NCBI GenBank assembly: GCA_040285855.1
Contig: JAUFOQ010000006.1
Coordinates: 2,232,001-2,296,000 of the forward strand
Direction: 5' to 3'
Source: Eukaryota sp. GEM-RC1
Lineage: Eukaryota
Length of the DNA stretch: 64,000 nt
Position 1 is the stretch's first letter; each line of letters opens with the position of its first letter. The notes beneath the pieces are model-generated. The model had not been told where the DNA came from, ran no database searches, and worked only from the letters and a program-made list of their open reading frames with translations. Of the stretch, positions 25,406-55,204 are shown in pieces. Position numbers and translations under genes: made by a program.

Positions 25406-27427
25406 TTATGGACTGAATCGGAATTGACTTTGAAGTCTTTCAATTTTGATGGAAGCTGTATTTGATTTGTCTTGAAGATCTTCAGCTTCTACATGTAATA
25501 TTCCATCTGAATCAATGATCATTGTGGTAGATATCTGGGCCTCTCCTGCTGGAAGTGGAGGTAGATTACTGATCCTGAAGCGTGCAAGAAATGTATTTAG
25601 AGACACAACCGAGGCCTCACCTTGATACACATTGATAGTAGTTGATGTTTGATAGTCGGCAGTAGTAACGTAAGTATCATTGAACATACAAGGAACACTG
25701 GAATGCCTAGGAATGATGACACTCATGGTACCAACTTCATTGGTTTCGGATTTAGATTTGATACTTATACCCAAACTATGAGGAGTAACATCATGAAGAA
25801 CGTGATGGAAATATGCAGCAGCACCAGCGGCTACGGATTGGTCAGGATTGAGAGTTTTTCTTACTTTACCAGGAAACTTAAGTTCAAGCATTTCTTGAAC
25901 CTTTCTCAAACGAGAAGATCCTCCTACAAGTTGGACGTAGTCGATGGCAAAAGATTGAAGACGGAGGGATTGAAGAAGTTCCTCAATAATCGATAAGCAT
26001 TTGGTAATGTAAGGGGCACAAATAGCATCAAAACGGTCTTTAGTTAAGACAAGTTCAAGATCATTTCCAGAAGCAAAGTTCTCAACTTCTATTTCAGCCT
26101 CATCTTTAGTCGTTAGGGCTTTCTTTGCTTTCTCTACCGCAAAACGCAATAAGACTTTTCTTCTTTTCAGTTGGTAAGGAGTAACAGTTATTGTCAGTAA
26201 TCCAGTTTTTCATAACATGGTCTACTATGTCTTGATCGATATTTGCCCCACCTAAGTTTGTAGAGCCATGAGTTCCAATGACAGTAATGTCATCACTTTT
26301 AATATCTACAATAGATACATCAAAGGTACCACCACCAAAATCAAATACGAGAACTCGCTTGCCGACTGTCGAAGGATCTTCTTGTTTTAGAGATAGAGCA
26401 GCAGCAGTTGGTTCGTTGATTAGGGTGATTTCCTCAAAGCCGGCAATTTCAGCAGCTGTTTGTGTTGCTTGACGTTGATCATCATTGAAATATGCAGGTA
26501 CAGTAATGACAGCCTTGGTGATGTTAGTCTGTCCCAGAGCATTGATAGCGTTAGTTCTGATGTGAGACAAGACTCTCGCACTGATTTCTTCGGATCTATA
26601 TGTTTGGTTATTCACTCTAATACCAGTAAATCCATCACTTAGTTCTACAATTCTGAAAGGATACCTGGATTTCATTTGTTGAACAACTTCATCATTAAAA
26701 CGTCGTCCAATAAATCGCTTAATCTCAAAAAAAGTTTTATCAGGGTGTTTCTTCATAGTATCTCGAGCATCAACACCGACGACACAATTCTGGGATGCGA
26801 AGGAGACAATAGATGGAACAAGTCTTTCAGCTGAGTCGAAATCTGTCAGAACTTCTGTGATGTGAGAAGTGAAACTGCTCTCAGATTCTCGTTTTTGACG
26901 GTATATAGCGGCACAAGAGTTTGTTGTTCCAAGGTCGATCCCAAGGACAATGGATGAAGACATTTGAGAATTTGGCCGTGTATTGGTGAAGGATGAACTA
27001 GTCTCGTTTGGTGAAGTATTGACGGAAACAATAGGGGAAGTACCAGGAGTTTCTATTTGTTGGTTGTTCGCTGATGAGCTGGACTGATGATGGTTGTAAA
27101 TGTTACGTCTTGTATTGTTTCTGGGTCTCTTTGAGTTGGGGCGACGATGACGACGAGTTTTTGGGCCCCTGGCATCTTCAACTTTAATATAGTTCTCCCC
27201 CCATTTCTGACAATTCCAATGAGATTTGATAGATTCACCTACTTCGACAGAAGGTACAGAAATGATAGCGTATCCAGGCATGTTAGGAACATGGCGAAAC
27301 ATCATGACATCACAATCGGGAAAGAAATGAAGCCTTTCCAGTAGCTCAGATACAGTGAACCAATGAGGAAGATTGCCTAAAATCAGACTGAAGATACACA
27401 CGAACCAATGTAGATGTTGGGGATCAT
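25406..27427 (-). CDS. hsp70: RRM-Hsp70 fusion protein (lidless); intron 27377-27405; frameshift near 26160
   Basis: Spliced start MIPNIYIGNLP (RNP2-like), GYAIISV (RNP1-like); then GIDLGTTNSC, DFGGGTFDVS, LVGGSSR and SBD-beta; ends QFRFSP. Confidence 0.85.
27377..27405 (-). other. Predicted 29-nt spliceosomal intron
   Basis: GTTCGTGTGTATCTTCAGTCTGATTTTAG; splicing creates IYIGNLP; same position and length in the paralog. Confidence 0.8.
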
Positions 27428-27431
27428 GTTA

Positions 27432-30441: not shown

Positions 30442-30451
30442 TAGTACTGTA

Positions 30452-33585: not shown

Positions 33586-33630
33586 TTAAGAATGATGAAA
33601 TTTGTAATAGAAATTCACAGTCTTCACTAC

Positions 33631-35212
33631 ATGTCTTCATCCTTTATTCTTGGGATCGATCTTGGAACAACAAACTCTTGTGTTGCATTTTATCGTCACA
33701 AGCGAGAAACTGAGAGCAGTCACACACCTCACATCACAGAAGTTCTGACGGATTTCCTGTCTTCGGAAAGACTTGTTCCATCTATTGTCTCCTTCGCATC
33801 CCAGAATTGTGTCGTTGGTGTTGATGCTCGTGATACTATGAAGAAACATCCAGATAAGATTGTGTATGAAGTCAAACGTTTCATTGGACGACGTTTTAAT
33901 GATGAAGTTGTTCAACAAATGAAAACCAGGTATCCTTTCAGAATTGTAGAACTAAGTGATGGATTCACTGGTATTAGAGTGAATAACCAAACATACCGTC
34001 CCGAAGAGATCAGTGCGAGAGTCTTATCTCACATCAGAACTAACGCTATCAATGCTCTGGGACAGACTAACATCACCAAGGCTGTCATTACTGTACCTGC
34101 ATATTTCAATGATGATCAACGTCAAGCAACAAAGAGGGCTGCATATATTGCCGGCTTTGAGGAAATCACCCTAATCAACGAACCAACTGCTGCTGCTCTA
34201 TCCCTAAAACAAGAAGATCCTTCGACAATCGGCAAGCGAGTTCTCGTATTTGATTTTTGGTGGTGGTACCTTTGATGTATCTATTGTAGATATTAAAAGT
34301 GATGACATTACTGTCATTGGAACTCATGGTTCTACCAACTTAGGTGGGGCAAACATCGATCAAGAAATAATAGACCATGTTATGAAAAACTGGACTACTG
34401 ACAATAACTGTTACTCCTTACCAACTGAAAAGAAGAAAGTCTTATTGCGTTTTGCGGTAGAGAAAGCAAAGAAAGCCCTAACGACTAAAGATGAGTCTGA
34501 AATAGAAGTTGAGAACTTTGCTTCTGGAAATGATCTTGAACTTGTCTTAACTAAACAACGTTTTGATGCTATTTGTGCTCCTTACATTACCAGATGCTTA
34601 TCTATCATTGAGGAACTTCTTCAATCCCTCCGTCTTCAATCTTCTGCCATCGACTACGTTCAACTTGTAGGAGGATCTTCTCGTTTGAGAAAGGTTCAAG
34701 AAATGCTTGAACTTAAGTTTCCTGGTAAGCTCAGAAAAACTCTAAACCCTGATCAATCCGTAGCTGCTGGTGCCGCTGCCTATTTCCATCACGTTCTTTA
34801 TGATGTTACTCCTCATAGCTTGGGCACTGATATCAAATCTAAATCAAGAACGAAAGAAGTTGGCACTATGAGTGTTATCATCCCTAGGCATTCCAGAATT
34901 CCTTGCAAGTTCACTGAAACTTACTACACTTCATGTGACTTTCAAACCACACTTACCATTGGTGTTTTTCAAGGTGAAGCCACGATTGTGTCTCTAAACA
35001 CATTTCTTGGACGCTTTGAGATCAGTAATCTACCTGTTCTTCCAGCAGGAGAAGCCAAAGTATCAACTACAATGATCATTGATTCAGATGGAATATTGCA
35101 TGTTGATGTTGAAGATCTTCAAAACAAATCAAATACAGCTTCAATCAAAATTGAAAAGCTTCAAAGTCAGTTCCGGTTTAGTCAACGTCTTGATGAAGTG
35201 TCTCGAACTTAG
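33631..35212 (+). CDS. hsp70: Lidless Hsp70-like protein, no N-terminal extension; frameshift in the T-run near 34255
   Basis: Canonical NBD motifs and SBD-beta; intact duplicate at 52212-53792. Confidence 0.9.
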
Positions 35213-35310
35213 TTATAACTTATATGCTAATCCATTTGGTTTTAATAAATGAAAATATAAAAATAAATTTGCTCATCCAGCCACTAGCAGTAAGAAAAAG
35301 AAACTTTTTT

Positions 35311-36170
35311 CTGTACCTAATATGGTACCCTTCCTACAAAGCTACAAAATGAAGCTGTATGAAATTGTAAAAACAAACAAAAATAATATTAAGACTAAAT
35401 CTAAACGACTTCCTTTTCATCTGGTAAAAGATTAAGTTACTCAACAATAACTTTCACACCAAACTTGTACAATTTCCCAACTGATGGAGAGAAATAGAAA
35501 AGCATATTAAGATATATTGAAAACACAATACGGTTTTTCAATCAGCTTTTCTAATACTAACACTTGTTTTCTTTACACAGTTCTTGGAATTCATTGAAAA
35601 ATAGACTACCAGCAGGACTAATCGATCCAAAAAGATAACCAGCAAAAGGTCAAAACACAAATATGAAATATGGGTTTCGATTTAACTATTCTACTTGAAA
35701 GTCAGAATTGGATTGTTTGAGTTTTTCAACATCTGTTGACTGATTAAAAGAACAAGCTAACATCCTTCTAACACCAAAATTTGTTACAAACATCTACTAT
35801 GGTATAATCCATTAATGATTGACTCGATTTAAGCCATGAAGTACGGAGGTCTTGCTCACTCTAAAGTTGAACCAGTTTTGAATCACCTTTTACAAAATGA
35901 ATTTACGGGTCAAGAAAAAGTGTGCTTTAATCATGAAATAACAAGCATCACGTACACCATCATGAATAACTGAACGTAGATGAATAAAATAACGACAATT
36001 AATTAAATGGCGAATAAGAGTACTAGTTCCACAAGAGCAAGTTGAATAGTTTAATCAATTTGCAGGCCAAATAGCCAAACGAAGACTCATATTGATCAAC
36101 CAAGCTTCATCAGATAAATGTAATCCAAACGCCTTAGGATTTTGAGAAATACATCAAGAAGGTCCACCAT
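35311..36170 (-). mobile_element. Degenerate 3' fragment of CRE-like LINE (third family)
   Basis: Minus strand reads FGLHLSDEAWLINMSLRLAIWP...CSCG...HLINC...HDGVRD; 3' part similar to 31200-31510. Confidence 0.7.
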
Positions 36171-36529
36171 TTCATAGATCAAATAAAAGAGTCAATGTAA
36201 TTTGCAGTTTACATTCTCACATACTACGGCAAATACGGAGAGGCAAAGGAGAAATTGAAGGGCTGGATGCAGCCTTCGTCTGGGGTGTAACGGTGACAGG
36301 AGACGTTTGCTTTGGATGGGTAATCTTACTCTCGTTCCCTGGAAGGCATCATCATCAGACTTTGCGTTACATAGATTCGTTTACGTTTATATTTGATACA
36401 TACTTGTTTGTTTTACTAGATTCTGACCATTTATCAACTAGTCTGTTAAAGGGTTAAACTGGCTGAGCACTTGAGTGTGACCTGCTGCTAAAGGTCTTTG
36501 AAAAAAACTAGAAACTGGCGCCAGTGAGC

Positions 36530-36636
36530 TCCAAGTCAAGTCGAACGACTGGACTTAAAAATTCTCAAGTTACTTGGAATTGACTTGATTCAAGTCGATC
36601 AACGTGTGCCTTGAGTCAAGTCGTTTGACAACACTA
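36530..36636. mobile_element. Orphan hAT-like end
   Basis: CAAGTC subterminal repeats ending GTTTGACAACACTA, similar to the TIR at 30452. Confidence 0.45.
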
Positions 36637-36639
36637 ATA

Positions 36640-39600
36640 TGAAAACATCCTGAACTTCCTGTTAGAGTTTAGCTTCTGGTCTCGCGAAATTAGACAACAG
36701 GAAGACAAGGTGTTACAATGATGAGTTAGGAAATCCTATCCACTCATATGACATCTGCCGTACTGCCGTCTTGGAGATTGACCCTACTGATGTATGTGAA
36801 TTTATCAACCAAAACATGGTTTATACTTGGAGACGTACAGGGGAATTATCTTCTAGTGGAACAGATGATGAAGCCGTTTGGCGTTATCTTTGTACGAAAC
36901 CTAGAACAACACCGTGAATGCTGCTACTAAGAGCTTTCAAAGCATCAATTTCACGAAATCCAATGTGGAGCCTCCTGAGAAAATCGCAAATTTCCTGAAT
37001 GCGGCTATAAAAGCCATTCAACGATCCACCGCCATCAAAGGTATCGGGGAAGAGAGGATCGCAATGCCATCAGATCTGATTGCTGAACACTTGAACCAAA
37101 TTGTTGATTGCGACAACAACATCAACCTCCTCGAAGACCTAAAGATAAAGTGGCTTCGTGTGCTTGAACGTAAACCTGAGCTGCTCGAAGAGTTTGTTAA
37201 TGACTTGAAAGAAGTATACCTCTTTTGGGCCAGGAATAATAGTGTTCAGACCGACGAACGAAGCTCTAGATCAAGTAAACCTTCCAAGAATGCTTTGAAA
37301 AGGCTAACTCGAACGAAAATGAACGTTCCGATGAACGTCCCTCTCGACGAGAAGAAAGAGCTTGCTTTAACTGCAACAAGAAAGGTCATTTGTCTAAGGA
37401 TTGCAAAGCCCTTCGCAGAAGCAGTGAGTCGGATGACAAGTCCAGAAAACGTAGGTCTGGTGACGGTAGTCGTAGTAAATATTCTAAATATTCTAAGAAT
37501 AAAACCGATAATTATGTCTTGCAAATTAGAACAACAGTCAACGCTACACCAGATTAATATATCAATCCCCTGGCAGTTCTCAACACACAAGAGGATAAGG
37601 ATGATACATCTAGAAAGATTTATAGTTTACAGAACTTAGGGATCAAAGACAAAGGTAACGGGCCTTTAGTTCTACGATTGTGGATTAACAAAGTTCCAGT
37701 GACAGGTGAATTTGATACAGCAGCTACATGTTCTGTGATCACTCAGGACCTTGTTCGTCACTGTGGAATGGAAATTATCGACGACAGTATTGATTACATT
37801 TCAGCGAATAATATTCGTGCAACTTCCTTAGGTAGTGCAATTGGTGTTCTGACGTTCAACGTCGGAAGTGTGGCCAACCAGATTCACAACAGGCATTCTC
37901 TTCCCGTAATTCCAGGTACCGGAACATTACTGATTGGACGAGATTTGCAAAATGATCTAGGGCTCCTGAAAGACGATGGTTTGATCATAAGATTAGACAA
38001 AGAACATCGCACAATCTTAAACTCTGAGAGTGAATTTGATGAGAGAATTTCGATACCATCAAAACCCATCTTGGATCAATCAATTTCGATTGCTTCCATC
38101 AATGATGAGTGCGGCAAGTCTCAACCCTCTAATCAATCTTTGATTGACTTTGAGAAGAAAGTTGACGATTCTGGCTGTAAGATACTACTAGATGATCCTA
38201 CACGACGACAGGCATTGCTTACCCTATTAAGCGAATGAGACGCCCTATTCTCACTCCTTGATTTCGCTTATTCTCACTCCTTCTGTTTATTTTTTTGTGA
38301 AGTTACATCTTCTCCTATGAACTACGAACCTGGATCATTTATTTTGGCAGCTCCTTCTTTCGATGATGATGCGTAAAGAATGTCCTGCAAAGAAAGGGAT
38401 GCCTTGTTGTAAGAGACTGCAACAGTTGGTTAAAGATTGCCAACCTCTAACTGTTGAGATGTTTCATCATCATTGGCATCTGGAAAGACGCATTGAAGAT
38501 GCTCAACGTGTAGGCCAACCTAGATTAGCCAGAATTCTTCCACCTAACCCAGCTTAGGCTAGAGGAAGGCCAAGACACTCAGAAGTAGCGAACAGCAATC
38601 ACCAGGATAGAGTTGTTGCTCAACAACGAACTCAATATAAATGTGGCCTCTGCAGAACTCCAGGTCATACTAGAAGAAGTTGTCCACTAAAGGGACAGTT
38701 CCAACGTATGATTGAACAAGGAACTAATGAGTAGTTGTATTAGGTTTATTTGATACGAAATAAAAGAAAATAAGACGTCATAGCGGAAGAAAAACTATGG
38801 TGAAGAAATACAGAGAAGGAGTGAGAATAAGCGAAATCAAGGAGTGAGAATAGGGCGTCTCTAAGCGAATACTCCGAAGTCTTCTCTGAAGAAATACATC
38901 CTGACGGCATTGATTGTCCTCCGATGTCTATTCCCTTCGACGACGAGAGCACAGTTGTATATAGGCCTCCTCGACGGTTGAACCCTATGAAACAGAAGGT
39001 TGCCGAAGAGATCTTTAATGAATTAATACTGCAAGGATGGGCCATACCATCGACAGGAACATTCAGCAGTCCCATTGTCCTGGTGATGTACAACGACCAC
39101 CGCAAGCCCCGTTTAACTGGAGATTTCAGTGGGCCCAATGGGATAAATGCTAATACGAAGCCTGTGAAGCTGAATCTTCCCAGGATCTGTGATATACTAG
39201 AGTTCCTTTCGAATGCAAACTTCATCGGAACAGTTGATCTTCCAAAAGCTTTTTGGCAACTCAAAGTAGCTGAAGAAGACGTCGACAAGACAACTGTGTC
39301 TATACCTGGTATGTCAATTAGTTTCAAACGGACATGTTTTGGTTTGAAGAATGTACCTGCAATCTTCCAAAACATTATGATGGATATATTCAACATTGAG
39401 GGTGTTTTTATTTACATTGACGATGTAATAATCATAGGGAACACATTTGAAGAATATATGGATCGATTACGACAAGTACTAGATTGCGCCAGACGCTTTC
39501 GTGTACGTTTTGGATTACGTAAATGTTATTTCGTAACTTGTAATCACAAAATCAAGATTCTAGGCAGCGACTTTGTGAACAAAACCCGTTGCATCGATGA

Positions 39601-42023
39601 AAGTAGAATTTCTGCTTTGAGGAACCTATCAAGTAATCTCACTGAAGTTAGGAGTCTGATTGGTGCTTTGAATTATATAGGAGACTTCATTCCAAATTTT
39701 TCGGATTTGACAGCTCCATTAGTAGCACTAACTCGTGACAAACCTAAGAAGATACTGTGGACAACGGAACACGATGAATTATTAGTATCAATCAAAGGAT
39801 TAATAATCAATCATATGGCTTTAGACTTGCCTAGTGAAGAAGTGAACATCATAATCTCCACGGATGCATCTAACATAGCCGTAGGTGGCGTGATTTGGCA
39901 GGAAGAAAATCCTCGATCTCCACCTGGGACTCCTCTAAAAGATCGAAGGGTTCGACCTATCTCTTTCTATAGCAGACTTTTGAACAATAGTCAGCAGAAT
40001 TGGGCTGCAATTCGGAAAGAATTGTATGTCATTTTGCAGATTCTGACTGAATTAACGTTGGAAGGTTTTCTAATGAGTAGACACTTGACGATCTTTACAG
40101 ATCATAGGAACCTTGCTTTTCTCATAACTGCACCTGAGAATAACCGGATTGTCAAACGATGGATCCCAATATTTTCTGAGTATAGTATTGAGATTGAGCA
40201 CGTTGCAGGAGAAGATAATCAATGGGCTGACATGCTATCACGAGTAATCGATCGCAGTCCCATTGAGACAATCAAATCAGTGATTTTGACAAATCACGTT
40301 TCAGATCGGAACATTGTACTCAATCAAATGGATATGAGACACAATGGAGATGACTACACCGAGTTACGGTTCATCAAGGATAACTCAACCTATGTCATCA
40401 GCAATCTACGGGAACTATCTGTCGACAACCAACTTCCTTTGTTCGACTCTTGGCTGTCAACCATTAGATCCGAACAGCTGAAAGCTTATGAGTTGAAAGA
40501 TCCTGTATTTAAGAACACGGTAATATGCTCTGAAAGCATGTTACATTTATCTAAAGACAAGAAAATCCTGATACCAGACACGTTGAGGAAAACACTACTC
40601 AATATGCTCCATGGTTTAGTCCAAGCAGGACACCCAAACTTGAAAGATAGTTTGGCTAAGCTGTTCAACAGCGGCTACTTTTGGCCTAAGATAAAAGCTG
40701 ACATGGTAAAACATGTTAAGCACTGTCCAGCCTGTCAGAAAACAGCTCCGGCTTATAAACTGACTATCGAATCGACGGGTTCGTTATGGGCCGACAGACC
40801 ATTCGCAAGACTCAATGTCGATACGATTGGACCTCTTCCAAAAGATCAAGATGGTAATCAGTTCTTACTGGTCTTCGTGGATTCGTTCACAAGATATACT
40901 ATCCTTAGCCCCCTCGAAGAACTAAATAGTATCGAGGTAGCACATCGTCTAGTGTGGGATGTTGTTGCTAGCTTTGGAGTACCTTTTATGATTCACAGTG
41001 ATAACGGCAAGGAGTTTGCTAACTCCACGTTCGAGGCAGTTTGTAACCTGCTGGCCGTTGAGATCAGTCGTTCGATTCCACATTTCTTTCAAAGTAAATG
41101 GTCTGGTAAAACGTCGACACAGGGATGTACTTCAAAGTCTACGTCGTCTCCTTGTAGATTTCAACGATTACGATAGTTGGTCTAGATATATCCCAGCTGT
41201 ACAACTTCAAATATATGCTACTACTAGTAGTGTCGCATGCCACTCACCATATCAACTGATGTTTGGAAGTGATATTAGCCCTGGTTCTGATCCAATAAAC
41301 ATGCTAAAAGCATTTGAACAAAGTCGATCTGAGATTCCATTCGTAAAAGATATGGCTCTAAAACTCGAAAGACTAACGAAAAAGCGAGAAGAGGCAGAGA
41401 CTCGTCAAACAAGTAAGGCCTCTCGCAAAACCAACAAAAGTAACCCGTTCAAGATAGGTGATCTCGTACTGAAGAAGTCAAAGACATCTAAGCAACATGG
41501 TAGTTATGCTGGACCATTCCTGTTAATGTCCGTTGATTCTCAATCATCAATGTCAATCAAGAATCTGATTACTGGTCACGTCAGCAAAGCTAGTTTCCAC
41601 CAATGTAAGATCTATCTCACAGACTTACCCAACGACTCTGATTTCCATAAGGCTGTTGCGTCAGACGATTCAAAAGAACATATCGTCCTTGAAATACTCG
41701 ACCGCTATGATACCCCCGTTGGTGAACACTGTACTGTGTTGTGGTATGGTGGTGAAACCTCCTCAGTTCCCACTAAGGATATTTCCAATACCAAAGCTTA
41801 TTCTGCGTTTATTAGATTAGAAAGTATTGATAGTAAAGTCCACAAGCCTAAGAAGCCCTTGCCTCGTACTAGAGTATCTAGCTCAGGACTGTCTAGTAAA
41901 ACACATGTTGCCAAGAGAACTAGGAACTCGAAGAGAGAGAAGAGGTAGTGTAGGCCACAGGTGTTGATACGTGGCAGTGTTCTAGTTCCAATTTCATTAT
42001 TCAATATACTTATACTTACCACA
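36640..42023 (+). mobile_element. Ty3/gypsy LTR retrotransposon, 5'-truncated and defective (gag-PR-RT-RH-IN-chromo-like)
   Basis: CFNCNKKGHLSKDC; FDTAAT; DLPKAFWQ, FGLKNVP, YIDD; TDASN; H..H/CPAC, DTIG, SDNG; purine tract GAGAGAGAAGAGG before TGTAGG. Confidence 0.93.
38237..38861. mobile_element. Non-autonomous MULE (625 bp) inserted in gypsy pol
   Basis: ~50-bp TIR GAGACGCCCTATTCTCACTCC...; 9-bp TSD TAAGCGAAT; internal RGRPR and CGLCRTPGHTRRSC; excision restores LLSEYSEVF. Confidence 0.93.
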
Positions 42024-42114
42024 TGTCTCATACAGGTAACATCATTGAAAAAATCACAAAGGTCATCAACAATTAAAAGAATTTTGTCTACATAATGCTT
42101 TTAAAATATCAAAA

Positions 42115-42570
42115 TTAATACCAAAAGGTCCGGGAGCTTTCCCAGATGGCAACGTTAAGATCAAATCCAAAACTCATCAGACAAAATACGATTTTCTCTC
42201 CAATATGTTGGAGAAAGTGGAACTTCCGTAACACATATTCTATTTTTAAAAAATGTATTTGTATTTTGTTCAATCCTTGTATTTTCCAGGTATGGTTGGA
42301 TCTATCAAGATTCAGCTCTTCCACATGAATGCTATCCTCAATAGACTCATACGCTGGATAAGTCCACAAGACATCATCGTATTTATTACTGACTACAACA
42401 CGTAGCGCTTGGCGAAGTTCGCTCCTTGGCATTCTGTCATCCACGATCGCATACCTAAAAGAAGACACTGATATCTGTTGAGGAACGTTTCTGCATGTAT
42501 TTTCCCTCAAGTTGGACGATTTACTGGGCGATTGGTTAGATACAGATGATGGGAATACGTATCGTTATCA
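42115..42570 (-). pseudogene. Unidentified coding fragment
   Basis: Protein-like 131-aa ORF, duplicated at 60726-61136; no motif recognised. Confidence 0.3.
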
Positions 42571-43338
42571 ATCATATTACACATGGGATCCGTGTCTTAG
42601 TATCTGTTAGTATCATTTGATTGGAAAGGAAGATGTATCTGATAGTATTAGTTTTAAGTACATGTAGTTTTCACAGAAGTCATTAGACATAAATTTACAA
42701 AAGAAAAGTACAGGAATAGCAAATTTTACGGTACAGGAATAGCAAAAACCTGCATTTGATGAGTGACTATTCACAGATAGAAACATTACTGGCTTAAAAA
42801 GTACAAAAACCGATTTTTTGACGATTTAAAGTTGTATTAGAAAATGGCGATGCTGACAATCTTTCATGAGTAATCTGAAACAGTATTGAAACCGATACAT
42901 TTCTTTCAAATCTTAAGGTTATGTATATGACATCATACTTGTAAAATTCCAAAATCTGTATTTTATGTATTTTATGTATTTTACTGAATTTTTTCCAATA
43001 TGCTGAACAAGTGCTTCGTCCGCTCATTTGCGTCCATTATAATGATATCAAGTGCTAGTTTTAGATGCAGTCATTCTTTGGTTCAGCTCTTTCCGACCAT
43101 TTGGTTAACATTTACTTGCATTTATCAAACTCAATCTGTGAAAATGAACAAATTTTGTTCATCAATCTCTTCCCTCAATTCATCCTAACAATCCAAGAAG
43201 TAACTTCTAGAACATAAGAAAGAGGAAGTGGGCCAGGACGCAGATGCTGGAATCAATGAATTAGTGGAGATCAACCTTGAACTTTTGCTGGACATCGTTA
43301 TAACCACCTGCAGGAATTGGAATCGAATACAATCTTAT

Positions 43339-44041
43339 CAGGGGTGGGAAAACAATATTGCAATAAATATAAACATATTTTAGCCACAAAATAACTATTG
43401 CAATTTCTGAAATAGTACCAATAAATATCGCAATTCTTCAACCAATATTGCAAGAGTTCAATATTGCAACAATAAGAATCATATTATGTACTTATTACAA
43501 AAAAACGCAGATTCTATTGTTCATAATCAGAAATATCGAAATTAATCTCAATAGTATTGAGAATAGTATCGAAGATGAAGATATTGAGTCAATACCATTA
43601 TATACATCTACGATTTTTATACTGCTCACGATAAGTCTTACAGTAGCTTTATCCCAAAAATCACTGTTTTCTTTCATTATTATTTGCATTTCAAGACTGG
43701 GGGCTTCAGAGAAAATGGCTTCAGAAGAAAGAATTCAGATTGAACTTCAGGAAACACTCGAATTGAGCTCAAATGACAGACATTATGATAATACAACAAC
43801 TAGAAATCATCACCGATAAATCAACTCTCACTTTATAAACACATAATGCAACAAAACGGGTTTTGGGACTCCAAATGGTGAAGTAAAACAACAAAATGAA
43901 CAACGTATATTGGCAATATTGCAATATTCCAATAATTAACCGGTATAACAATAAATATTGGTCCACCTCACAGAGCGGAAATATATAGTGGAGCAATATT
44001 TATTGCAATATTGGAAGATCAATATTGTTTTCCCACCCCTG
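43339..44041. mobile_element. Non-autonomous hAT element (703 bp)
   Basis: 22-bp TIR CAGGGGTGGGAAAACAATATTG; 8-bp TSD AATCTTAT. Confidence 0.93.
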
Positions 44042-44324
44042 AATCTTATACTGCACCGTTATCGTTGAGTGCTCGTTGAAGAAGATTAGCAGACTGATAT
44101 GTTTGTATTTTACTTTGTATTTTGGCGTATTTTTGTATTTTTCAAATGAAAACTCGTGTATTGTACAAGTATGTATGACATCAAATAACAGCGGCACGTA
44201 CAGTACATGTACCAAATATAATTACATTGATTTAAGATAAATTACAAAACATTCATTTACAAGTATATAACATTAATAACATAAGGAAGTATGAAGAAAA
44301 ATACTAACAAAAAAGTGACTCAAG

Positions 44325-46646
44325 TTATGGACTGAATCAGAATTGACTTTGAAGTCTTTCAATTTTGATGGAAGCTGTATTTGATTTGTCTTGAAGATCT
44401 TCAGCTTCTACATGTAATATTCCATCTGAATCAATGATCATTGTGGTAGATATTTGGGCTTCTCCTGCTGGAAGGGGGAGGTAGATTACTGATCCTGAAG
44501 CGTGCAAGAAATGTATTTAGAGACACAACCGAGGCCTCACCTTGATACACGTTGATAGTAGTTGATGTTTGATAGTCGGCAGTAGTAACGTAAGTATCAT
44601 TGAACATACAAGGAACACTGGAATGCCTAGGAATGATGACACTCATGGTACCAACTTCATTGGTTTCGGATTTAGATTTGATACTAATACCCAAACTATG
44701 AGGAGTTACATCATGAAGAACGTGATTAAAGTAGGCAGATGCACCAGCAGCCACGGATTGGTCAGGATTGAGAGTTTTTCTTACTTTACCAGGAAACTTA
44801 AGTTCAAGTATTTCTTGAACCTTTCTCAAACGAGAAGATCCTCCTACAAGTTGGACGTAGTCGATGGCAGAAGATTGAAGACGGAGGGATTGAAGAAGTT
44901 CCTCAATGATAGATAAGCATCTGGTAATGTAAGGGGCACAAATAGCATCAAAACGGTCTTTAGTTAAGACAAGTTCAAGATCATTTCCAGAAGCAAAGTT
45001 CTCAACTTCTATTTCAGACTCATCTTTAGTCGTTAGGGCTTTCTTTGCTTTCTCTACCGCAAAACGCAATAAGACTTTCTTCTTTTCAGTTGGTAAGGAG
45101 TAACAGTTATTGTCAGTAGTCCAGTTTTTCATAACATGGTCTATTATTTCTTGATCGATGTTTGCCCCACCTAAGTTGGTAGAGCCATGAGTTCCAATGA
45201 CAGTAATGTCATCGCTTTTAATATCTACAATAGAAACATCAAAGGTACCACCACCAAAATCAAATACGAGAACTCGCTTGCCGATTGACGAAGGATCTTC
45301 TTGTTTTAGAGATAGAGCAGCAGCAGTTGGTTCGTTGATTAGGGTGATTTCCTCAAAGCCGGCAATATATGCAGCCCTCTTTGTTGCTTGACGTTGATCA
45401 TCATTGAAATATGCAGGTACAGTAATGACAGCCTTGGTGATGTGAGACTGTCCCAGAGCATTGATAGCGTTAGTTCTGATGTGAGATAAGACTCTCGCAC
45501 TGATTTCTTCGGGACGGTATGTTTGGTTATTCACTCCGATACCAGTGAATCCATCACTTAGTTCTACAATTCTGAAAGGATATCTGGTTTTCATTTGTTG
45601 AACAACTTCATCATTAAAACGTCGTCCAATAAATCGCTTAATCTCAAAAAAAGTTTTATCAGGGTGTTTCTTCATAGTATCTCGAGCATCAACACCAATA
45701 CTACATGGCTGGGATGCGAAGGAGACAATAGATGGAACAAGTATTTCAGCTGAGTCGAAATCTGTCAGAACTTCAGTGATGTGAGATGTGAGACTGCCGT
45801 CTGGTTCTCGTTTTTGACGATAAACTGCAGCACAAGAGTTTGTTGTTCCGAGGTCGATCCCAAGAACAATGGATGAAGACATTTGAGAATTTGGCCGTGT
45901 ATTGGTGAAGGATGAAGTCTTGACTGCAATAATAGGAGTTGCAGAGGTCATGTTGTAATGTGAAAGATCCTGGTCATCGTCTAAAACGAGACCTTTGAAA
46001 ACAAGTTTAAGTCCAAAAGAGTATTGTGACTCACAAAGTAGATCGTAGACCTTCGATTTCAAGATATGTACTTTGTCAGTGGGATCAACGTCTACTTCGA
46101 AGATACGGGATGGGTTTAGCAGGCGAACTCTAAGTTGTCCTTGTCTTTCTCGTAATCTCTTGACTCTACTTTCATAGATTCTCTGGAAAAAGGGTACACT
46201 TCGGTGGGGTCTTCTTTCTGGGCGACTAGGAGAAGTCTTAGGTTCGTCAGTCTCTACGTTGTTAGCCGTTGAGCTGGATGGGAGACGTCCGTTCATGTTA
46301 CATCTTCGACCTCGACCTCGACCTAAGGGGGGACGGTTAACACGAGATCTGGGGGGTAAGGTATCCATGACTTTGATTTCGTGTTCTCCCCACATCTGAC
46401 CATTCCAATGAGATTTGATGAATTCACCTATTTCAGCAGAAGGTACGGAAATGATTGCAAATGACCCATTAAACCACATAGAATCTCGACGCACAATGAC
46501 GTCACAACCGGGGAATAAACTGAGCTTTTCCAAAAGTTCAGTTACAGTGAAGCCATGAGGAAGATTGCCTTAAGTCAGACGGGGTATTCACACAAACCAA
46601 TGTAGATTCTTGTAGTACGAGTGGGTTCATCAGGTTCACCACACAT
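44325..46646 (-). CDS. hsp70: RRM-ubiquitin-like-Hsp70 fusion protein (lidless); intron 46569-46597; frameshift in the G-run near 44475
   Basis: Spliced start MCGEPDEPTRTTRIYIGNLP; RGRGR linker; Ubl FEVDVDPTDKVHILKSKV...LKLVFKGLVLDDDQDLSHYNM; Hsp70 NBD and SBD-beta in one open frame. Confidence 0.88.
46569..46597 (-). other. Predicted 29-nt spliceosomal intron
   Basis: GTTTGTGTGAATACCCCGTCTGACTTAAG with CTGAC branch motif; splicing links ATG 46646 in frame to the 700-aa ORF. Confidence 0.85.
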
Positions 46647-47159
46647 TATATGTGAAGCGGAATTCAACTTACAATTTGTATTTTTTTTGATTTCCTTAAG
46701 CGATTATACAGCAGAAGTGTGTAATGAATCGATTCTTTTGTTTATCTTTTTCTTAGGCAACTTCGATAAATACTAGTTTTGTCACGGGAACTACTATTTT
46801 AACTTTATTCGATAATTATATATACATGAACATGTATATGTACCTTCGATAATTGAATGATAATTGAAAATGTGAAAGGTACATATATAGATTATTCAAA
46901 CAACGGGTATTACATGGTCTTCATTCAATCCTTCTAGCTCAGTTGCAAAGGAGTAAGAGCCAAAAAAGTGGTTTAGTAAGACCTGGCCCGACTACAAAAA
47001 TGCCTACATAATGGTCGCTCTCTTTGTAAGAGTAGAAACCAACCTTCTATTAGTAGTCTAGAATTTGAACAACTCATGTGTCAAACGTATTTGTGGAGTA
47101 GCAAACAATTTCTCCAACATCATTTATCAGTCCTTACTACATTTCCCAAGACATGTTTC

Positions 47160-47930
47160 GAGTTTTCCTCGTTTTGTTGAATTGTCTTCAAGTATTGGTT
47201 TGTCAATTAATTTTCAAAAATGTCTTGTCATTGGACGTTCTTCAGTTGATTTGAATTTTGGGGAATCTTCCATTCCGTTTGTCAATTATTCAGATGAATG
47301 TGTCAAGTTTTTGGGCAATTATACTGGTATTGTTGACAAAATTAAGGAGACTTTATCACATAAGAATAATTGTATCTTTCAGCAGCTTAACCAAATCGTT
47401 GATCTAGATGTAGGCAAACAAGTGTCTTTTGCTATGCTGCAAGTTTGCTTTGGTGGTAAAATTAATCACTTTTTACGTGGTTTACCGCCTGAACTAACTC
47501 TCGAATGATCTCGTAATTTTAATTCATTGCGCACAAATTTTGTTAGTTATCTGGTTGGTAACAAAGACTCTTCACTTCCTTCTCATTGTTTTACTTCTAC
47601 TTCTTTTGGTGGTATTGGTTTCACGAAAGCTAAATACATGCGTGATGGTGCCTTTTGGGGTCTTTAAAGAATTTTTTGTTTGGCTTTCAGAATCGTTATC
47701 CTGAGTTATGGAAAACGAAAGGTTTTTTACTTCACTCACCTTGTGCATGGTTAATTAGTTTTCAAAATTTAATTGATAGTCTTGACTCCAATTTGTGGTC
47801 AGATGTATTTCCTGTTGGGGTAACAGAAATTCAGCAGAGAAGCATTTTCTCTTTGCCTTTGTGTGTTCGCAAGTTACAGAAGAAGTTTGTTTTGTTTCAC
47901 GAAAGCTTGGACTTTAAAAACCGTATTAAG
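47160..47930 (+). mobile_element. Internal fragment of CRE-like LINE (same family as 21327-24328)
   Basis: VGKQVSFAMLQVCFGGKINHFLRGLPPELT closely matches ORF 22390-23028. Confidence 0.85.
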
Positions 47931-49490
47931 TGTCTGGAGAACCTGAAAGTATTGGTAAAGGAGTTGCACAGAGAGACTCTGGTGTGGGGATTGATGGTGT
48001 CACAACCAAAGAAACCCATGTTACACTGGATGAATCTGATGCTGAAGCACTCCGAAAACTCCGTTTGAACCGGGATGGTGAAGACGTGCAATTTATTTCT
48101 GAGCCTAAGACCCCCAAGAAGTCTAGTCAGACAGCGTCCTCTGGAGCTAAGAATCTTCTGCCAATTGATGAGTTTGACATATCTAATGTGGAATACTCTG
48201 AGGAACTTACCCAGGACGATTTGGCGAGGAAGTTGAAACGTGTAGCTGAGATGACCGAACTATTAGCTTTCCGAAAAAACTTCGAAGAGCATGATAGACT
48301 ACTTGCTCTCTCCGTAAAACCCCATAGACCCATGTCTAATGGGGAACGGAAAGAATTCGAAGCAGGGAAACGGGCCAGGTCCGTCGAGGACAACGCTCCG
48401 GACTACCTAAGGGATAGAGCTCTGTGGCATAATGATGCACTCCCTGATCATCTCATACCCTTCGAATCCATCCGCGACAGCTTAACAGGTATGACTGCGG
48501 AAACTCTCTGGTACTATGCCCAGTTTCAACCGAGTCATCCTGATCTCAAAGCTAGGATGCGGCATAGGAAACATTACCTAATCAGGAATGTACCACCTTT
48601 GACTTCCCCAGAGAACATCAAGAAGTAGCTGGGTGAGAAGTTCAACGGGAGCCGTGGGGATACCTTTAGCTTTCCGGACGATGAAGTCTGGGACCCTTCC
48701 ATGGGAATGGTTGTTGAACTTGCTGAACTTGGAGACCCCTCTGGTCAACGAGTATTTTATGCTTACCCTCCTTGGTTTGTGTACCAAAAATCTCGAGAAG
48801 CTGCTGTGTTTCACAATGTGGCTGTCTTCACAGATTGGGTTGACCCTGCTCACGAATTTCCCAATGTTGGACCTGGCTTAGCTTTACCTCAGAAGTTTCG
48901 TACTACTCCAGCTGATAACAGGGAGATTGTTCCTTTCGGTCTTCGAAACGATCAAAGACTCGAACTTAGCGTTGGTGCTCCTCTCTGCGAAAGCAAACAT
49001 CAAGACTCTCCTTCAATTCGAGAACTAGATGCTGACGCTCCTCCAAACTCTTATTACCCTGGTAAAACAAAAAGACCCAGTGGTTCCGTTATTTATGTTT
49101 ATGACAAAAAATCAAAGAAGTTTCTACGTGGTAAAGAAATCAACGGTTTTGGTGATAAAAGACACAAGGGCTCTCCGAAGACTGGTTGCGAAGAAGAATT
49201 CGAAGAAGTCTACAAGATTACCGAGAATCCAGATCGCTTGAGCACAATTATGCAGATCTTGGAACTCGAGGAAACCCCAGCTCAAGCAGAACCTCGTTCA
49301 GAATTCGAAGTAGAAGAACATGTTCGACCTCCTTTCAGATCTCGATACGATGAATCTCCTCCCGACTCCGATGAAGAAGATAGAAGGAATCTGGCTGGAT
49401 CATGTGCCTTGCGTGGATCTATGATTTTAGGAAACAATCCAATCAAATCAAAAGCTCGCCCAAAGTCGAAATTCAAACCAAAGATGTTGG
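47930..49490 (+). pseudogene. Orphan ~520-codon reading frame with one in-frame TAG (48626-48628)
   Basis: ORFs 47930 and 48701 share a frame; higher GC than flanks; no family recognised. Confidence 0.5.
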
Positions 49491-49802
49491 AGGATTTATT
49501 CTCCCGCGCTGGCAATGTTGTGAATGCCAAAAGAACACGGTTAAATGTTGAATGTGTTCAAGCAATTTTGAGTTTAGAATCGTGGAGCTGATATTCATTA
49601 TCTCATTAATAAATCTTGTTACTACGAATAGAAAATACATTGGTGTGTTTATATACTTGACATTCAAATACAAATGTTTGTTGATGAGTACTACTCGAGT
49701 ACTACTCAATGAGTCTACTCAGATACTCGAGTAGTATTCATATTCACTTTTCAGGGACGGTGAGTAGTACTCGAGTATTACTCGAGTATTTTCCCATCTC
49801 TA
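49490..49802 (+). mobile_element. 3' end of a hAT element
   Basis: LFSRAGNVVNAKRTRL...LSLESW (dimerisation domain end), TACTCGAGTA repeats, terminus CCCATCTCTA. Confidence 0.8.
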
Positions 49803-50368
49803 TTCTATAGTTTTGTATTGTTCCAAGAAAAATACAATTATCACAAAGTTGTATAAGAACATTATAACTATATTCGGTACTCAATAAGGTAACCTTCCTA
49901 CAAAAACATGAAATTGTAAAAACAGACAAATAATACTAAGACTAAATCCAAACGACTTCATCACCACCCTGTAAAAGATTACGTTTTTCAACATTAAGCT
50001 TCACACCAAACTTGTACAAGTTCTCAATTAATCGAGAGAAATAGAAAGGCATATTCCGACATATAAAAAACACTATGCTGTGCTACTGTTGACCAGGAAT
50101 TTTCTTTGTCTAGTGTCTCAGACTTTTATATGTATTTTTGTGCCCTCCATCGATAAACTATTTTTAAATGTTATTTAACAAAGACTGTCAGTCAATTGGA
50201 CTCGACTTGAAATATACAGTAGTCGACTCGACTCTGCTTTGATATCTCATGAGTAGACTCGACTAAACTCACTTGGTTCTAGTTGTTGGACGTACAAAAC
50301 ACTGAACATAATAACTTATCAATCAGAACCAGGTACATAGCTATTATCAAGTAAAATCAAAAATTAGA

Positions 50369-52160
50369 CTATAATCTACCAGAAAGACGAACAAAAGGGA
50401 CATTTGGATTGTCTGTAGAGTGCAAATCGATACCAGCATCAAGGTCAGATACAGAAACATTACAGTTCAGTTTTGTTTTAGACCCATGACAAATTTGAAC
50501 ACTCAATGTATCCTCAGGACACATCCTTAAATTAAAAGTAAACTTTTCTTTTTTCTTGAATTCACGAAATGTACGGGTTTGCGTGTGCTGAAGATCGTCA
50601 TGAGTTAGGACAAATAGAATAGATATATCTGCTGTACAAACAAAATGATTCAAAGGTTCTGTGTAGACGACAAACTCAGCTTCATCACACAGATCAGGTT
50701 TCTGGTTTTTTGAATCATGTTCAACTGGTTGGTCCATTATAATAACTGGAATCCTCTTAAAAACCCCATTTTGACTCTCAGCAATGTTAGTAGGGAGTAA
50801 ACTCTGGTTGGTCGGTGCACAATCATGTTCATGACAAGCGTTTTGGCGAAAACTTGTACCACACGAAATTTGACTTGTACATGTGTGAGAATGTGTGCCA
50901 GTTTCTTCTATAGGTGTTCCAGAAACGATTAATTGAGTTTGTTCGGTTTTCTCTTCATGTGGTTCAGCTCCAGTATGTGTTAAAACTACATTTTGAGGTC
51001 TCAGGTGTTTAACATTTGACGGATCTTTCCATCGTAGTCCTCCAAGAGCAACATCAGTGTTAGGATCCAGTATACAAGCCAAAGGTGCTTTAAAAGCCGA
51101 TCGCATCCGTTCTCTAACTGAATGAAGAGCTGCTAACCTTCCAACTGGAACAACTTTGGTAACAAATTGTGACTGTACATATTTGGCTTGTTCCTCAAGC
51201 AGCTTAACAAAGTTCTCTCGAAATGCCTCCAATTTCCCAGAAAGATCTTTCAAGAAACTGTCAAGTACAGATGGTGGAACATCTTCCTCAAAGTCACCAT
51301 TTGGATAAAAGTCTTCTACCAAAACTGACATCCTAGTTTTAGTTTTAGCTTTATTACATGCCAAAAGTAATTTCATCTTGGATTTTCATTCATTGTGGCA
51401 CGGATTTCTTCATCAATTTTAGTTAAGCAGTACTCATACAAAGCTTGGTCAACTTGAACAGCACCCATCCACCACTCTTCAGAATGAATGGCATTAATGT
51501 CAAATCGTTGATGGAGAAAGACAACAGCTTTGGTAAGTAACTGACCAACATCTACAATGACGACGGTTTCAAGTTTAGAGGGTTCAGGGGCTTTAAAGAG
51601 ATAAGAAGCTACAAGAGCTTCCAGAGTAGGGACAACAGTGATATCAGGATAGTCAAGGTTATGGAATGTATCAAGAAGAACATTTTGATGTTGTACAGGT
51701 AGACTTTGAGGAAGAACCAATGATGATATGTCAAAAGGGGAGTTGATGCAATGATTCAGTTCAAGTATAATGTGTTCTACAAGAGGAAGAAGGAGTTCTG
51801 TTTGTGTGAGATTTTTACAAACACTGTTCACATTTACGGAGAAGACAAGACCGTCATTGATTTGGCTGACATTTCCCATAAGAAAAGAAGTAAAAGGAAG
51901 ATGTAAGGGTTTAGGGGAAGATTCTTCTGTGACTTCAGTGGGGACAATGTGTGTAACAGACACAAAACAGTTTTTGGCATGCTTCTTGACTTTGGATTCG
52001 GCATTTTGAGCTGTGAAAAAGACCCCAGTTCTTTAACAACGACATTAGAAAGGAACATCGCATCGGTACTTGTTTGTAAACTAGTATCTCGATTATCCAC
52101 GTCATTTCTCACCGCGAGGACGATGCCGTAGGATCCCAGATCTAAAGAAACATGATGCAT
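50369..52160 (-). CDS. Divergent Hsp70/Hsp110-like gene, copy 2 (frameshifts near 52015 and 51380)
   Basis: Duplicate of 31795-33585. Confidence 0.65.
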
Positions 52161-52211
52161 TTAAGAATGATGAAATTTGTAATAGAAATTCACAGCATGA
52201 GTCTTCACTAC

Positions 52212-53792
52212 ATGTCTTCATCCTTTATTCTTGGGATCGATCTTGGAACAACAAACTCTTGTGTTGCATTTTATCGTCACAAGCGAGAAACTGAGAGCAG
52301 TCACACACCTCACATCACAGAAGTTCTGACGGATTTCCTGTCTTCGGAAAGACTTGTTCCATCTATTGTCTTCTTCGCATCCCAGAATTGTGTCGTTGGT
52401 GTTGATGCTCGTGATACTATGAAGAAACATCCAGATAAGATTGTGTATGAAGTCAAACGTTTCATTGGACGACGTTTTAATGATGAAGTTGTTCAACAAA
52501 TGAAAACCAGGTATCCTTTCAGAATTGTAGAACTAAGTGATGGATTCACTGGTATTAGAGTGAATAACCAAACATACCGTCCCGAAGAGATCAGTGCGAG
52601 AGTCTTATCTCACATCAGAACTAACGCTATCAATGCTCTGGGACAGACTAACATCACCAAGGCTGTCATTACTGTACCTGCATATTTCAATGATGATCAA
52701 CGTCAAGCAACAAAGAGGGCTGCATATATTGCCGGCTTTGAGGAAATCACCCTAATCAACGAACCAACTGCTGCTGCTCTATCTCTAAAACAAGAAGATC
52801 CTTCGACAATCGGCAAGCGAGTTCTCGTATTTGATTTTGGTGGTGGTACCTTTGATGTATCTATTGTAGATATTAAAAGCGATGACATTACTGTCATTGG
52901 AACTCATGGTTCTACCAACTTAGGTGGGGCAAACATCGATCAAGAAATAATAAACAATGTTAAGAAAAACTGGACTACTGACAATAACCGTTATTCCTTA
53001 CCAACTGAAAAGAAGAAAGTCTTATTGCGTTTTGCGGTAGAGAAAGCAAAGAAAGCCCTAACAACTAGAAATAAGGCTGAAATAGAAGTTGAGAACTTTG
53101 CTTCTGGAAATGATCTTGAACTTGTCCTAACTAAAGACCGTTTTGATGCTATTTGTGCCCCTTACATTACCAGATGCTTATCGATTATTGAGGAACTTCT
53201 TCAATCCCTCCGTCTTCAATCTTTTGCCATCGACTACGTTCAACTTGTAGGAGGATCTTCTCGTATAAGAAAGGTTCAAGAAATGCTTGAACTTAAGTTT
53301 CCTGGTAAGCTCAGAAAAACTCTAAACCCTGATCAATCCGTAGCCGCTGGTGCCGCTGCCTATTTCCATCACGTTCTTTATGATGTTACTCCTCATAGCT
53401 TGGGCACTGATATCAAATCTAAATCAAGAACGAAAGAAGTTGGCACTATGAGTGTTATCATCCCTAGGCATTCCAGAATTCCTTGCAAGTTCACTGAAAC
53501 TTACTACACTTCAAGTGACTATCAAACCACACTTACCATTGGTGTTTTTCAAGGTGAAGCCACGATTGTGTCTCTAAACACATTTCTTGGACGCTTTGAG
53601 ATCAGTAATCTACCTGTTCTTCCAGCAGGAGAAGCCAAAGTATCAACTACAATGATCATTGATTCAGATGGAATATTGCATGTTGATGTTGAAGATCTTC
53701 AAAACAAATCAAATACAGCTTCAATCAAAATTGAAAAGCTTCAAAGTCAGTTCCGGTTTAGTCAACGTCTTGATGAAGTGTCTCGAACTTAG
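52212..53792 (+). CDS. hsp70: Lidless Hsp70-like protein, intact ORF (526 aa from MSSSFILG)
   Basis: GIDLGTTNSC, EVKRFIG, TVPAYFND, NEPTAAA, DFGGGTFDVS, LVGGSSRI, DVTPHSLG, IDSDGILHV; no lid or EEVD. Confidence 0.93.
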   Translation: MSSSFILGIDLGTTNSCVAFYRHKRETESSHTPHITEVLTDFLSSERLVPSIVFFASQNCVVGVDARDTMKKHPDKIVYEVKRFIGRRFNDEVVQQMKTRYPFRIVELSDGFTGIRVNNQTYRPEEISARVLSHIRTNAINALGQTNITKAVITVPAYFNDDQRQATKRAAYIAGFEEITLINEPTAAALSLKQEDPSTIGKRVLVFDFGGGTFDVSIVDIKSDDITVIGTHGSTNLGGANIDQEIINNVKKNWTTDNNRYSLPTEKKKVLLRFAVEKAKKALTTRNKAEIEVENFASGNDLELVLTKDRFDAICAPYITRCLSIIEELLQSLRLQSFAIDYVQLVGGSSRIRKVQEMLELKFPGKLRKTLNPDQSVAAGAAAYFHHVLYDVTPHSLGTDIKSKSRTKEVGTMSVIIPRHSRIPCKFTETYYTSSDYQTTLTIGVFQGEATIVSLNTFLGRFEISNLPVLPAGEAKVSTTMIIDSDGILHVDVEDLQNKSNTASIKIEKLQSQFRFSQRLDEVSRT

Positions 53793-53890
53793 TTATAACT
53801 TATATGCTAATCCATTTGGTTTTAATAAATGAAAATATAAAAATAAATTTGCTCATCTAGCCACTAGCAGTAAGAAAAAGAAACTTTTTT

Positions 53891-54735
53891 CTGTACCTAA
53901 TATGGTACCCTTCCTACAACGTTATGAAATTGTAAAAACAAACAAAAATAATATTAAGACTAAATCTAAACGACTTCCTTTTCATCTGTTAAAAGATTAA
54001 GTTATTCAACAATAACTTTCACACCAAACTTGTACAATTTCCCAACTGATGGAGAGAAATAGAAAAGCATATTAAGATATATTGAAAACATAATACGGTT
54101 TTTCAATCAGCTTTTCTAATACTAACACTTGTTTTCTTTACACAGTTCTTGGAATTCATTGAAAAATAGACTACCAGCAGGACTAATCGATCCAAAAAGA
54201 TAACCAGCAAAAGGTCAAAACACAAATATGAAATATGGGTTTCGATTTAACTATTCTACTTGAAAGTCAGAATTGGATTGTTTGAGTTTTTCAACATCTG
54301 TTGACTGATTAAAAGAACAAGCTAACATCCTTCTAACACCAAAATTTGTTACAAACATCTACTATGGTATAATCCATTAATGATTGACTCGATTTAAGCC
54401 ATGAAGTACGGAGGTCTTGCTCACTCTAAAGTTGAACCAGTTTTGAATCACCTTTTACAAAATGAATTTACGGGTCAAGAAAAATCATGCTTTAATCATG
54501 AAATAACAAGCATCACGTACACCATCATGAATAACTGAACGTAGATGAATAAAATAACGACAATTAATTAAATGGCGAATAAGAGTACTAGTTCCACAAG
54601 AGCAAGTTGAATAGTTTAATAAATTTGCAGGCCAAATAGCCAAACGAAGACTCATATTGATCAACCAAGCTTCATCAGATAAATGTAATCCAAACGCCTT
54701 AGGATTTTGAGAAATACATCAAGAAGGTCCACCAT
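53891..54735 (-). mobile_element. CRE-like LINE 3' fragment, copy 2
   Basis: Duplicate of 35311-36170. Confidence 0.7.
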
Positions 54736-55204
54736 TTCATAGATCAAATAAAAGAGTCAATGTAATTTGCAGTTTACATTCTCACATATTACGGCAAATA
54801 CGGAGAGGCAAAGGAGAAATTGAAGGGCTGGATGCAGCCTTCGTCTGGGGTGTAACGGTGACAGGAGACGTTTGCTTTGGATGGGTAATCTTACTCTCGT
54901 TCCCTGGAAGGCATCATCATCAGACTTTGCGTTACATAGATTCGTTTACGTTTATATTTGATACATACTTGTTTGTTTTACTAGATTCTGACCATTTATC
55001 AACTAGTCTGTTAAAGGGTTAAACTGGCTGAGCACTTGAGTGTGACCTGCTGCTAAAGGTCTTTGAAAAAAACTAGAAACTGGCGCCAGTGAGTTCCAAG
55101 TCAAGTCGAACGACTGGACTTAAAAATTCTCAAGTTACTTGGAATTGACTTGATTCAAGTCGATCAACGTGTGCCTTGAGTCAAGTCGTTTGACAACACT
55201 AATA

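Follow-up and report, generated by a model that had tools for sequence, protein, structure and literature searches.

Can a single Hsp70 chain carry its own RNA-binding domain and its own route to the proteasome, and is a gene that seems to encode such a chain real, alive and selected? The question is raised by a minus-strand gene in a stretch of 64,000 nucleotides (hereafter the window) from contig JAUFOQ010000006.1 of Eukaryota sp. GEM-RC1, which an earlier note, made from the DNA letters alone, had described as a fusion of an RRM, a ubiquitin-like domain (Ubl) and an Hsp70. According to the available part of the genome paper, these organisms are anaerobic soda-lake metamonads whose Nanopore assemblies were corrected with Illumina reads, the GEM-RC assembly being 48% repetitive (PMC11316075); the locus tags of five of the records named here were not found in six of that paper's supplementary files.

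The minus strand holds an open reading frame of 712 aa from stop to stop (46569-44431). Eight candidate GT-AG introns are able to link this frame with the ATG at 46646, and one of 29 nt (46597-46569) restores the RNP2-like motif and gives a product of 728 aa. The deposited protein P0005 has the same 728 residues and the same first exon, and a paralog in the window carries an intron of 29 nt, also GT-AG, at the identical site, with 8 of the 29 bases differing from the focal intron. The single frame that had been read across 44325-46646 does not hold, since a +1 frameshift at 44478-44474 intervenes and the frame ends at 44431; the domain calls do hold by Pfam, AlphaFold and Foldseek, and the three-domain RRM-Ubl-Hsp70 architecture is real (Table 1).

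Table 1. Features of the fusion gene and its copies in the window (position 1 is the first nucleotide of the window).
Feature	Coordinates	Strand	Evidence
First exon, with the start codon and strand beta1 of the RRM (RNP2-like motif)	46598..46646	-	Deposited model P0005
29-nt GT-AG intron within the RRM	46569..46597	-	Paralog has same site and length
RRM, residues 12-85, split by the intron	46369..46613	-	AlphaFold; Foldseek; Pfam RRM_1 E 0.025; ESM Atlas match of paralog
Disordered linker rich in Arg (17 of 74 aa); probable donor, RRM protein P0004	46135..46368	-	62% identity over 84 aa
Basic 18-residue helix at linker end, 18/18 identical to P0004	46144..46197	-	AlphaFold helix 143-156
Ubl without C-terminal Gly-Gly, a probable copy of that of the organism's Rad23	45910..46134	-	Pfam PF00240; 59/75 identical to P0001
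Nine-codon spacer preceding the Hsp70 Met; identical in paralog	45883..45909	-	
Hsp70 NBD, catalytic residues intact	44728..45882	-	Pfam; structure match; residue check
Shortened interdomain linker, then SBD-beta as far as the frameshift	44479..44727	-	
Five-C run, +1 frameshift relative to intact paralogs	44474..44478	-	Main frame stops at 44431
Last 45 codons of SBD-beta in other frame, ending in TGA; no alpha-helical lid, no EEVD	44337..44473	-	Pfam HSP70 positions 459-498
Paralog RRM-Hsp70 (P0002), with nine-codon Ubl-end remnant at ~27039-27012	25406..27427	-	21/28 nt match
3' part of 99% gene duplicate in 18.6-kb segmental duplication; 5' part outside window, likely P0003	62900..64000	-	

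The RRM of the fusion is divergent. A Pfam scan of the whole protein gives no RRM match, and the N-terminal piece alone covers positions 1-70 of the 70-position RRM_1 profile at E 0.025 and 14.9 bits, below the cut-off of 20.7. The RRM-like N-terminus proposed after splicing is borne out by its fold: AlphaFold places a beta-alpha-beta-beta-alpha-beta topology at residues 12-85 (pLDDT 71-88), Foldseek returns an RRM-protein match to the focal protein (E 5.8e-4), and the RRM domain of the paralog, 61% identical, matches RRM clusters of the ESM Atlas (features 0.91, TM 0.77-0.84). The whole protein matches plain Hsp70 clusters only in that atlas, and in the PDB no RRM reached significance by sequence search, the best match (E 0.095) being to an RRM protein. 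Scored against the RNP1 and RNP2 consensus, the domain keeps the RNP2 Tyr and the Phe at RNP1 position 3 and lacks the aromatic at RNP1 position 5, one of the three stacking aromatics, together with the basic RNP1 residue. The linker that follows, of about 75 residues, is modelled as disordered (pLDDT about 30). The RRM and this 17-Arg linker would put the protein on RNA, with an RNP1 that is partly degenerate.

The parentage of the Ubl is closer to hand. The segment, first placed at about 46137-45922 and now delimited at 46134-45910, scores 28.7 bits with Pfam ubiquitin (PF00240; cut-off 25.4), and in a structure search it adopts a beta-grasp fold (Z 11.5, rmsd 1.8, 72 residues aligned); the AlphaFold model of P0003 is weak (mean pLDDT 50) and served for the fold of the Ubl only, the fold lists being filled by Ubl matches. 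Residues 172-246 of the fusion match TIGR00601 (rad23), and 59 of 75 residues (79%) are identical to the Ubl of the organism's own Rad23, P0001, which has a Ubl, two UBA domains and an XPC-binding domain. At the positions that align with the hydrophobic patch of ubiquitin, the fused domain keeps the Rad23 residues; the basic Rad23 residue aligning with ubiquitin Lys48 has become Leu. Like the Rad23 and Dsk2 shuttles, the fusion carries an integral Ubl without Gly-Gly; unlike them it has, by Pfam scan of P0005, neither a UBA nor an XPC-binding/STI1 domain, and clients would be selected by the Hsp70 and the RRM instead of by polyubiquitin. Because the Ubl appears to have been copied from the Rad23 of the organism itself, the analogy with integral domains that dock on the proteasome is stronger than the earlier note could have known. 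A cleavable ubiquitin fusion was considered and rejected: the domain ends in Thr-Ser-Ser, has no Gly-Gly and is about 25% identical to ubiquitin.

The Hsp70 part matches Pfam HSP70 at E 5e-111. Its NBD has the actin fold and keeps the equivalents of the phosphate loop, Lys71, Glu175, Asp199, Thr204 and Asp206 (Hsc70 numbering); in all, canonical Hsp70 is matched at 13 catalytic or nucleotide-binding positions and at the Pro and Arg switch positions. As these residues are kept and the AlphaFold model fits onto the structure of ATP-bound BiP (Z 54.3, rmsd 2.8, 454 residues aligned), ATP binding is likely. All parts of the eight-strand SBD-beta are encoded in the DNA, the last 45 codons out of frame. 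The interdomain linker is about 12 residues shorter than usual and contains two His, and the Arg that contacts J-domains is Thr, which suggests that stimulation by J-domains may be weak or changed.

The alpha-helical lid and the EEVD are absent, and the whole subfamily to which the protein belongs ends soon after SBD-beta. A quick tree of 27 rows puts the Hsp70 together with unfused proteins of 520-545 aa from three skoliomonad isolates (SH-aLRT 100), which places it, by sequence, in a lidless subfamily found only in skoliomonads. Five members (P0006, P0007, P0008, P0129 and P0126) share the clade, the shortened linker and the lack of lid and EEVD, and differ from the fusion in beginning at the Hsp70 Met; in P0126, from Eukaryota sp. 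TZLM1-RC, the NBD is joined to a C-terminal protein kinase domain. Within the subfamily an RRM or Ubl occurs in the GEM-RC1 records P0002, P0003 and P0005 only, the relatives in two sister species being unfused or kinase-fused. A viral origin was rejected, the best viral matches being 33-35% identical against 43-67% for the skoliomonad relatives. The plant truncated Hsp70T type III proteins are lidless too, and structures of Ssz1 match at Z 43; the accessible text on the plant proteins mentions no N-terminal RRM or Ubl and their origin is separate, and it proposes them as holdases without EEVD-based passage to Hsp90 or into the ubiquitin-proteasome pathway (PMC10687569). Elsewhere in the window, two strongly degenerate Hsp70/Hsp110-like genes, recognized by eye and without a Pfam match (50369-52160 and 32075-33585, both minus strand), have a long C-terminal part of no known kind and stand head to head with unfused Hsp70 genes at 52212 (+) and 33631 (+); the spacing of about 50 nt suggests a shared two-way promoter.

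How the three parts came together can be read from sequences of the same genome. A search with the N-terminal 230 residues gave four proteins, all from Eukaryota sp. GEM-RC1 (2 of 1113 and 2 of 350 candidates). One of them, P0004, matches the fusion from the end of the RRM through the linker (62% over 84 aa) and then continues into an RRM of its own, to which no known RRM family is assigned; its gene model lacks most of the first RRM, so that a donor with two RRMs is inferred. P0004 and P0001 lie on contigs other than that of the focal gene. The gene is thus very probably a chimera of three genes of one organism, namely an RRM protein, Rad23 and a lidless Hsp70. That the three pieces were joined by the assembler, and never in the organism, would not surprise in an error-prone long-read assembly of a repeat-rich region; this explanation is nonetheless very improbable, as the frame runs through both junctions, identity of the pieces to donors on other contigs is just 62-79%, the diverged paralog has the same RRM, the same intron and a remnant of the Ubl, and P0003 contains both junctions again, differing from the focal protein at two amino acids.

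The paralog just mentioned, 18 kb from the focal gene at 25.4-27.4 kb, corresponds to P0002 (no difference over the stretches compared) and runs from the RRM through half of the linker into a nine-codon stretch that agrees with the final Ubl strand at 21 of 28 nt. No other position in the focal gene scores above 13, and a score of 21 arose in 1 of 5000 shuffles. The identity of this remnant, 75%, is close to that of the RRM region (76%) and not to that of the Hsp70 region (95%), and the alignment reads a 6-nt microhomology at both ends of the part missing from the paralog. Given the remnant, the triple fusion likely came first: it would predate the split of the paralogs, and the paralog would have lost its Ubl by deletion. 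The domain was therefore dispensable in that copy, or the copy is dead. The focal gene itself lies within a segmental duplication (31355-45427 and 49929-64000, 99.1% identical), the second copy of which is matched in its 3' part by P0125 and has its likely 5' part in P0003.

Mobile elements are frequent around these genes. Fragments of non-LTR retrotransposons lie upstream of both RRM fusions in opposite orientation (27370-29567 and 47161-47927, both plus strand), the one at P0002 abutting the start codon; both halves of the segmental duplication hold a Ty3/gypsy-like element recognized by eye (36905-41948 and 55469-60513, plus strand), and MITE-like elements with terminal inverted repeats of 23 nt and 29 nt occupy 43338-44042 and 29857-30446. 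Capture inside a DNA transposon was considered and is unsupported, no terminal inverted repeats enclosing the gene within 41900-50400.

Whether the focal copy is intact depends on how its 3' end is read. The five-C run shifts the frame, and the 45-codon tail of SBD-beta then ends at a TGA (44339-44337), four codons ahead of the TAA (44327-44325) used by the paralog; the TGA is a substitution, the 25-kb paralog having CGA, and removes four residues. Both lesions recur in the duplicate copy (~63050), and this is the argument that they are real, since independent random errors would not give the same damage twice. The gene could then be a once-functional chimera, now a pseudogene, with its last SBD-beta strands lost and any signal of selection historical, as would suit a region rich in transposon fragments and broken paralogs and a sister copy without the Ubl. 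Against such decay, the tail past the frameshift differs from the 25-kb paralog by 2 synonymous changes and 0 non-synonymous ones, the 5' 2.1 kb are open, and frameshifts are about as frequent as residual long-read errors would lead one to expect: the duplicated 14-kb segments show 18 indels, 15 of them single-base and 10 of these in runs of at least 4, frame breaks affect five of the six Hsp70 copies of the window, and an APN1-like endonuclease IV gene recognized by eye (6513-7500, plus strand) has a one-base frame break near 7105 that is likely an assembly error. Because indels are common in the assembly, APN1 is broken in the same manner and the tail has no amino-acid change, an assembly error is somewhat favoured over a real lesion, at odds of about three to two; the pseudogene is unlikely, though a serious contender.

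Traces of selection were sought in the divergence between the focal gene and its paralog. Over 65 codons of the RRM cores (Nei-Gojobori) dS is 0.72 and dN/dS 0.36 (bootstrap 0.16-0.77; Fisher p 0.0025); the linkers have a dN/dS of 0.89. The Hsp70 parts have dN/dS of 0.16-0.32 at a dS of 0.08-0.15, a value so low that gene conversion in the array is suggested to have homogenised them. In neutral simulations of one branch at 0.25 or 0.35 changes per site, which assumes that the fusion is as old as the paralog split, a Ubl identity of at least 59 was reached in 0.04% or 0% of runs and the 687-nt N-terminal frame stayed open in 0.9% or 0.3%; with 0.15 changes per site, such a Ubl identity is unremarkable (17% of runs). 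The 18-residue helix remained unchanged in 0.3% or less of neutral runs. From these comparisons we infer that the RRM, the Ubl and the basic helix have been under purifying selection after the fusion, and past selection on the fusion gene appears fairly well supported.

The same data bear on a more modest reading, in which an expressed Hsp70 gained a promoter and a first exon from the RRM gene and in which RRM, linker and Ubl are tolerated passengers, folded and in frame. The deletion of the Ubl in the sister copy, the near-neutral evolution of the linker and the existence of unfused members of the subfamily would all agree with it. It is improbable in view of the dN/dS of the RRM and of the helix that has not changed from its donor, although selection for folding alone could account for part of that conservation.

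What the product would do, if made, is predicted from its parts. The lidless, ATP-binding Hsp70 is predicted to hold clients, the RRM and Arg-rich linker to tether the chaperone to RNA or RNPs, and the Rad23-derived Ubl to dock the whole on the proteasome. Hsp70 clients are usually handed over via CHIP or HOP; a lidless Hsp70 without EEVD could not use this hand-over, so that a built-in Ubl would give it a direct route to the proteasome. At a probability of roughly 0.4, then, the protein works as a single-chain shuttle from RNA or RNPs to the proteasome. Several observations count against the shuttle: the five-C run and early TGA in both copies, the loss of the Ubl from the sister copy with a retroelement fragment at the start codon of that copy, the ordinary Ubl identity under neutrality at 0.15 changes per site, the RRM short of one stacking aromatic and the basic RNP1 residue, the Leu aligned with Lys48, the altered J-domain contact Arg and hydrophobic linker, and the unfused or kinase-fused state of the relatives in sister species. 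The RNA-targeted chaperone routing RNPs to degradation that the earlier note had imagined thus stands in part, on its domains and on a Ubl derived from Rad23, and is weakened by the missing lid and EEVD, the altered linker and the possible frameshift. Its suggestion of retroelement or viral RNPs as targets falls away, as nothing points there and the nearby transposon fragments are local background. A more ambitious version of the shuttle, a natural single-chain RNA-guided degrader in which RRM and linker pick an RNA or RNP, the lidless Hsp70 grips the associated protein and the Rad23 Ubl passes it on to the proteasome with no ubiquitination involved, is a distinctly doubtful proposal; it would include a recent assembly, all three parents and a sister copy deleted for the Ubl being retained in one genome, where they could serve as controls.

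In functional terms, the shuttle's main rival is a Ubl that acts as a built-in degron: the Hsp70 would then have a short life, degradation starting from the disordered linker or from a C-terminal tail that is unfolded, and the client would perhaps be destroyed as well. It is the main rival because Rad23 escapes degradation through its C-terminal UBA, which the fusion lacks; in the accessible text on Rad23 this protection is lost when an unstructured extension is present (PMC3105319), and the available part of the midnolin study describes midnolin as itself degraded in a Ubl-dependent manner (PMC10617673). The 75-residue disordered linker of the fusion would suit such a fate; its internal position, between folded domains, would not, and we consider the degron quite unlikely. 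It would overlap with the shuttle if clients are degraded along with the chaperone.

The shuttle has partial precedents. BAG1, with a Ubl and a BAG domain, binds Hsp70 in trans via the latter, and Pfam finds no BAG domain in the fusion. Midnolin combines a Ubl with a Catch domain and a basic helix and, in the portion of the study available, delivers clients without ubiquitination (PMC10617673). Both resemble the fusion in tying an integral Ubl to client capture; no Catch domain was detected in the fusion, midnolin entries match its Ubl only, and the likeness to the midnolin helix is an analogy only, since the basic helix of the fusion comes from the RRM protein.

Extra domains on Hsp70 are themselves recurrent. 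The best 150 of 39,826 representatives at E 0.001 were taken as relatives and 148 scanned with Pfam (37 at E 1e-4 and 111 at E 1e-3; the other two are P0003 and P0007). Among these 148, which were ranked by Hsp70 similarity from clustered libraries that can hide fusions, none has a ubiquitin domain, and an RRM is present in a single one, P0271, where it precedes a canonical full-length Hsp70; precomputed assignments give neither a ubiquitin nor an RRM domain among the 120 matches listed. The 37 long or N-extended matches include six TPR, four GBP, one GrpE and one RRM fusion, and kinase fusions are seen among the hits as well. An N-terminal TPR is found in P0146, P0157, P0183, P0186, P0200 and P0227, and an N-terminal GBP in P0164, P0170, P0258 and P0270; metagenomic RRM-Hsp70 proteins with a full lid (P0271, P0273 and P0275) come from several contigs and two sources. 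Since P0271 has a full lid, lies outside the skoliomonad clade and has an RRM not detectably similar to that of the fusion, it is likely an independent event. HRP4 of Leishmania joins an NBD to TPR, according to the available part of its description (PMC4943205). None of the TPR, GBP and RRM fusions, nor HRP4, has a Ubl. A literature search, mostly outside subscription papers, found no Ubl-Hsp70 or RRM-Hsp70 fusion described, and none for Skoliomonas either. That the earlier note knew this architecture from no described Hsp70 is in line with these results: the architecture is new as far as the searches reach, it is built of known parts and it occurs in one species.

Should the copies be dead, they would still be a clear, dated case of gene shuffling among three parents in a protist genome rich in transposons. 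If the gene is functional, domain capture would have turned an Hsp70, which is among the most conserved of proteins, into a self-contained shuttle from RNA to the proteasome that unites in cis the tasks performed in trans by BAG1, CHIP and Rad23. With the parents, an unfused paralog and a sister copy without the Ubl all available, the gain or loss of each module is directly testable.
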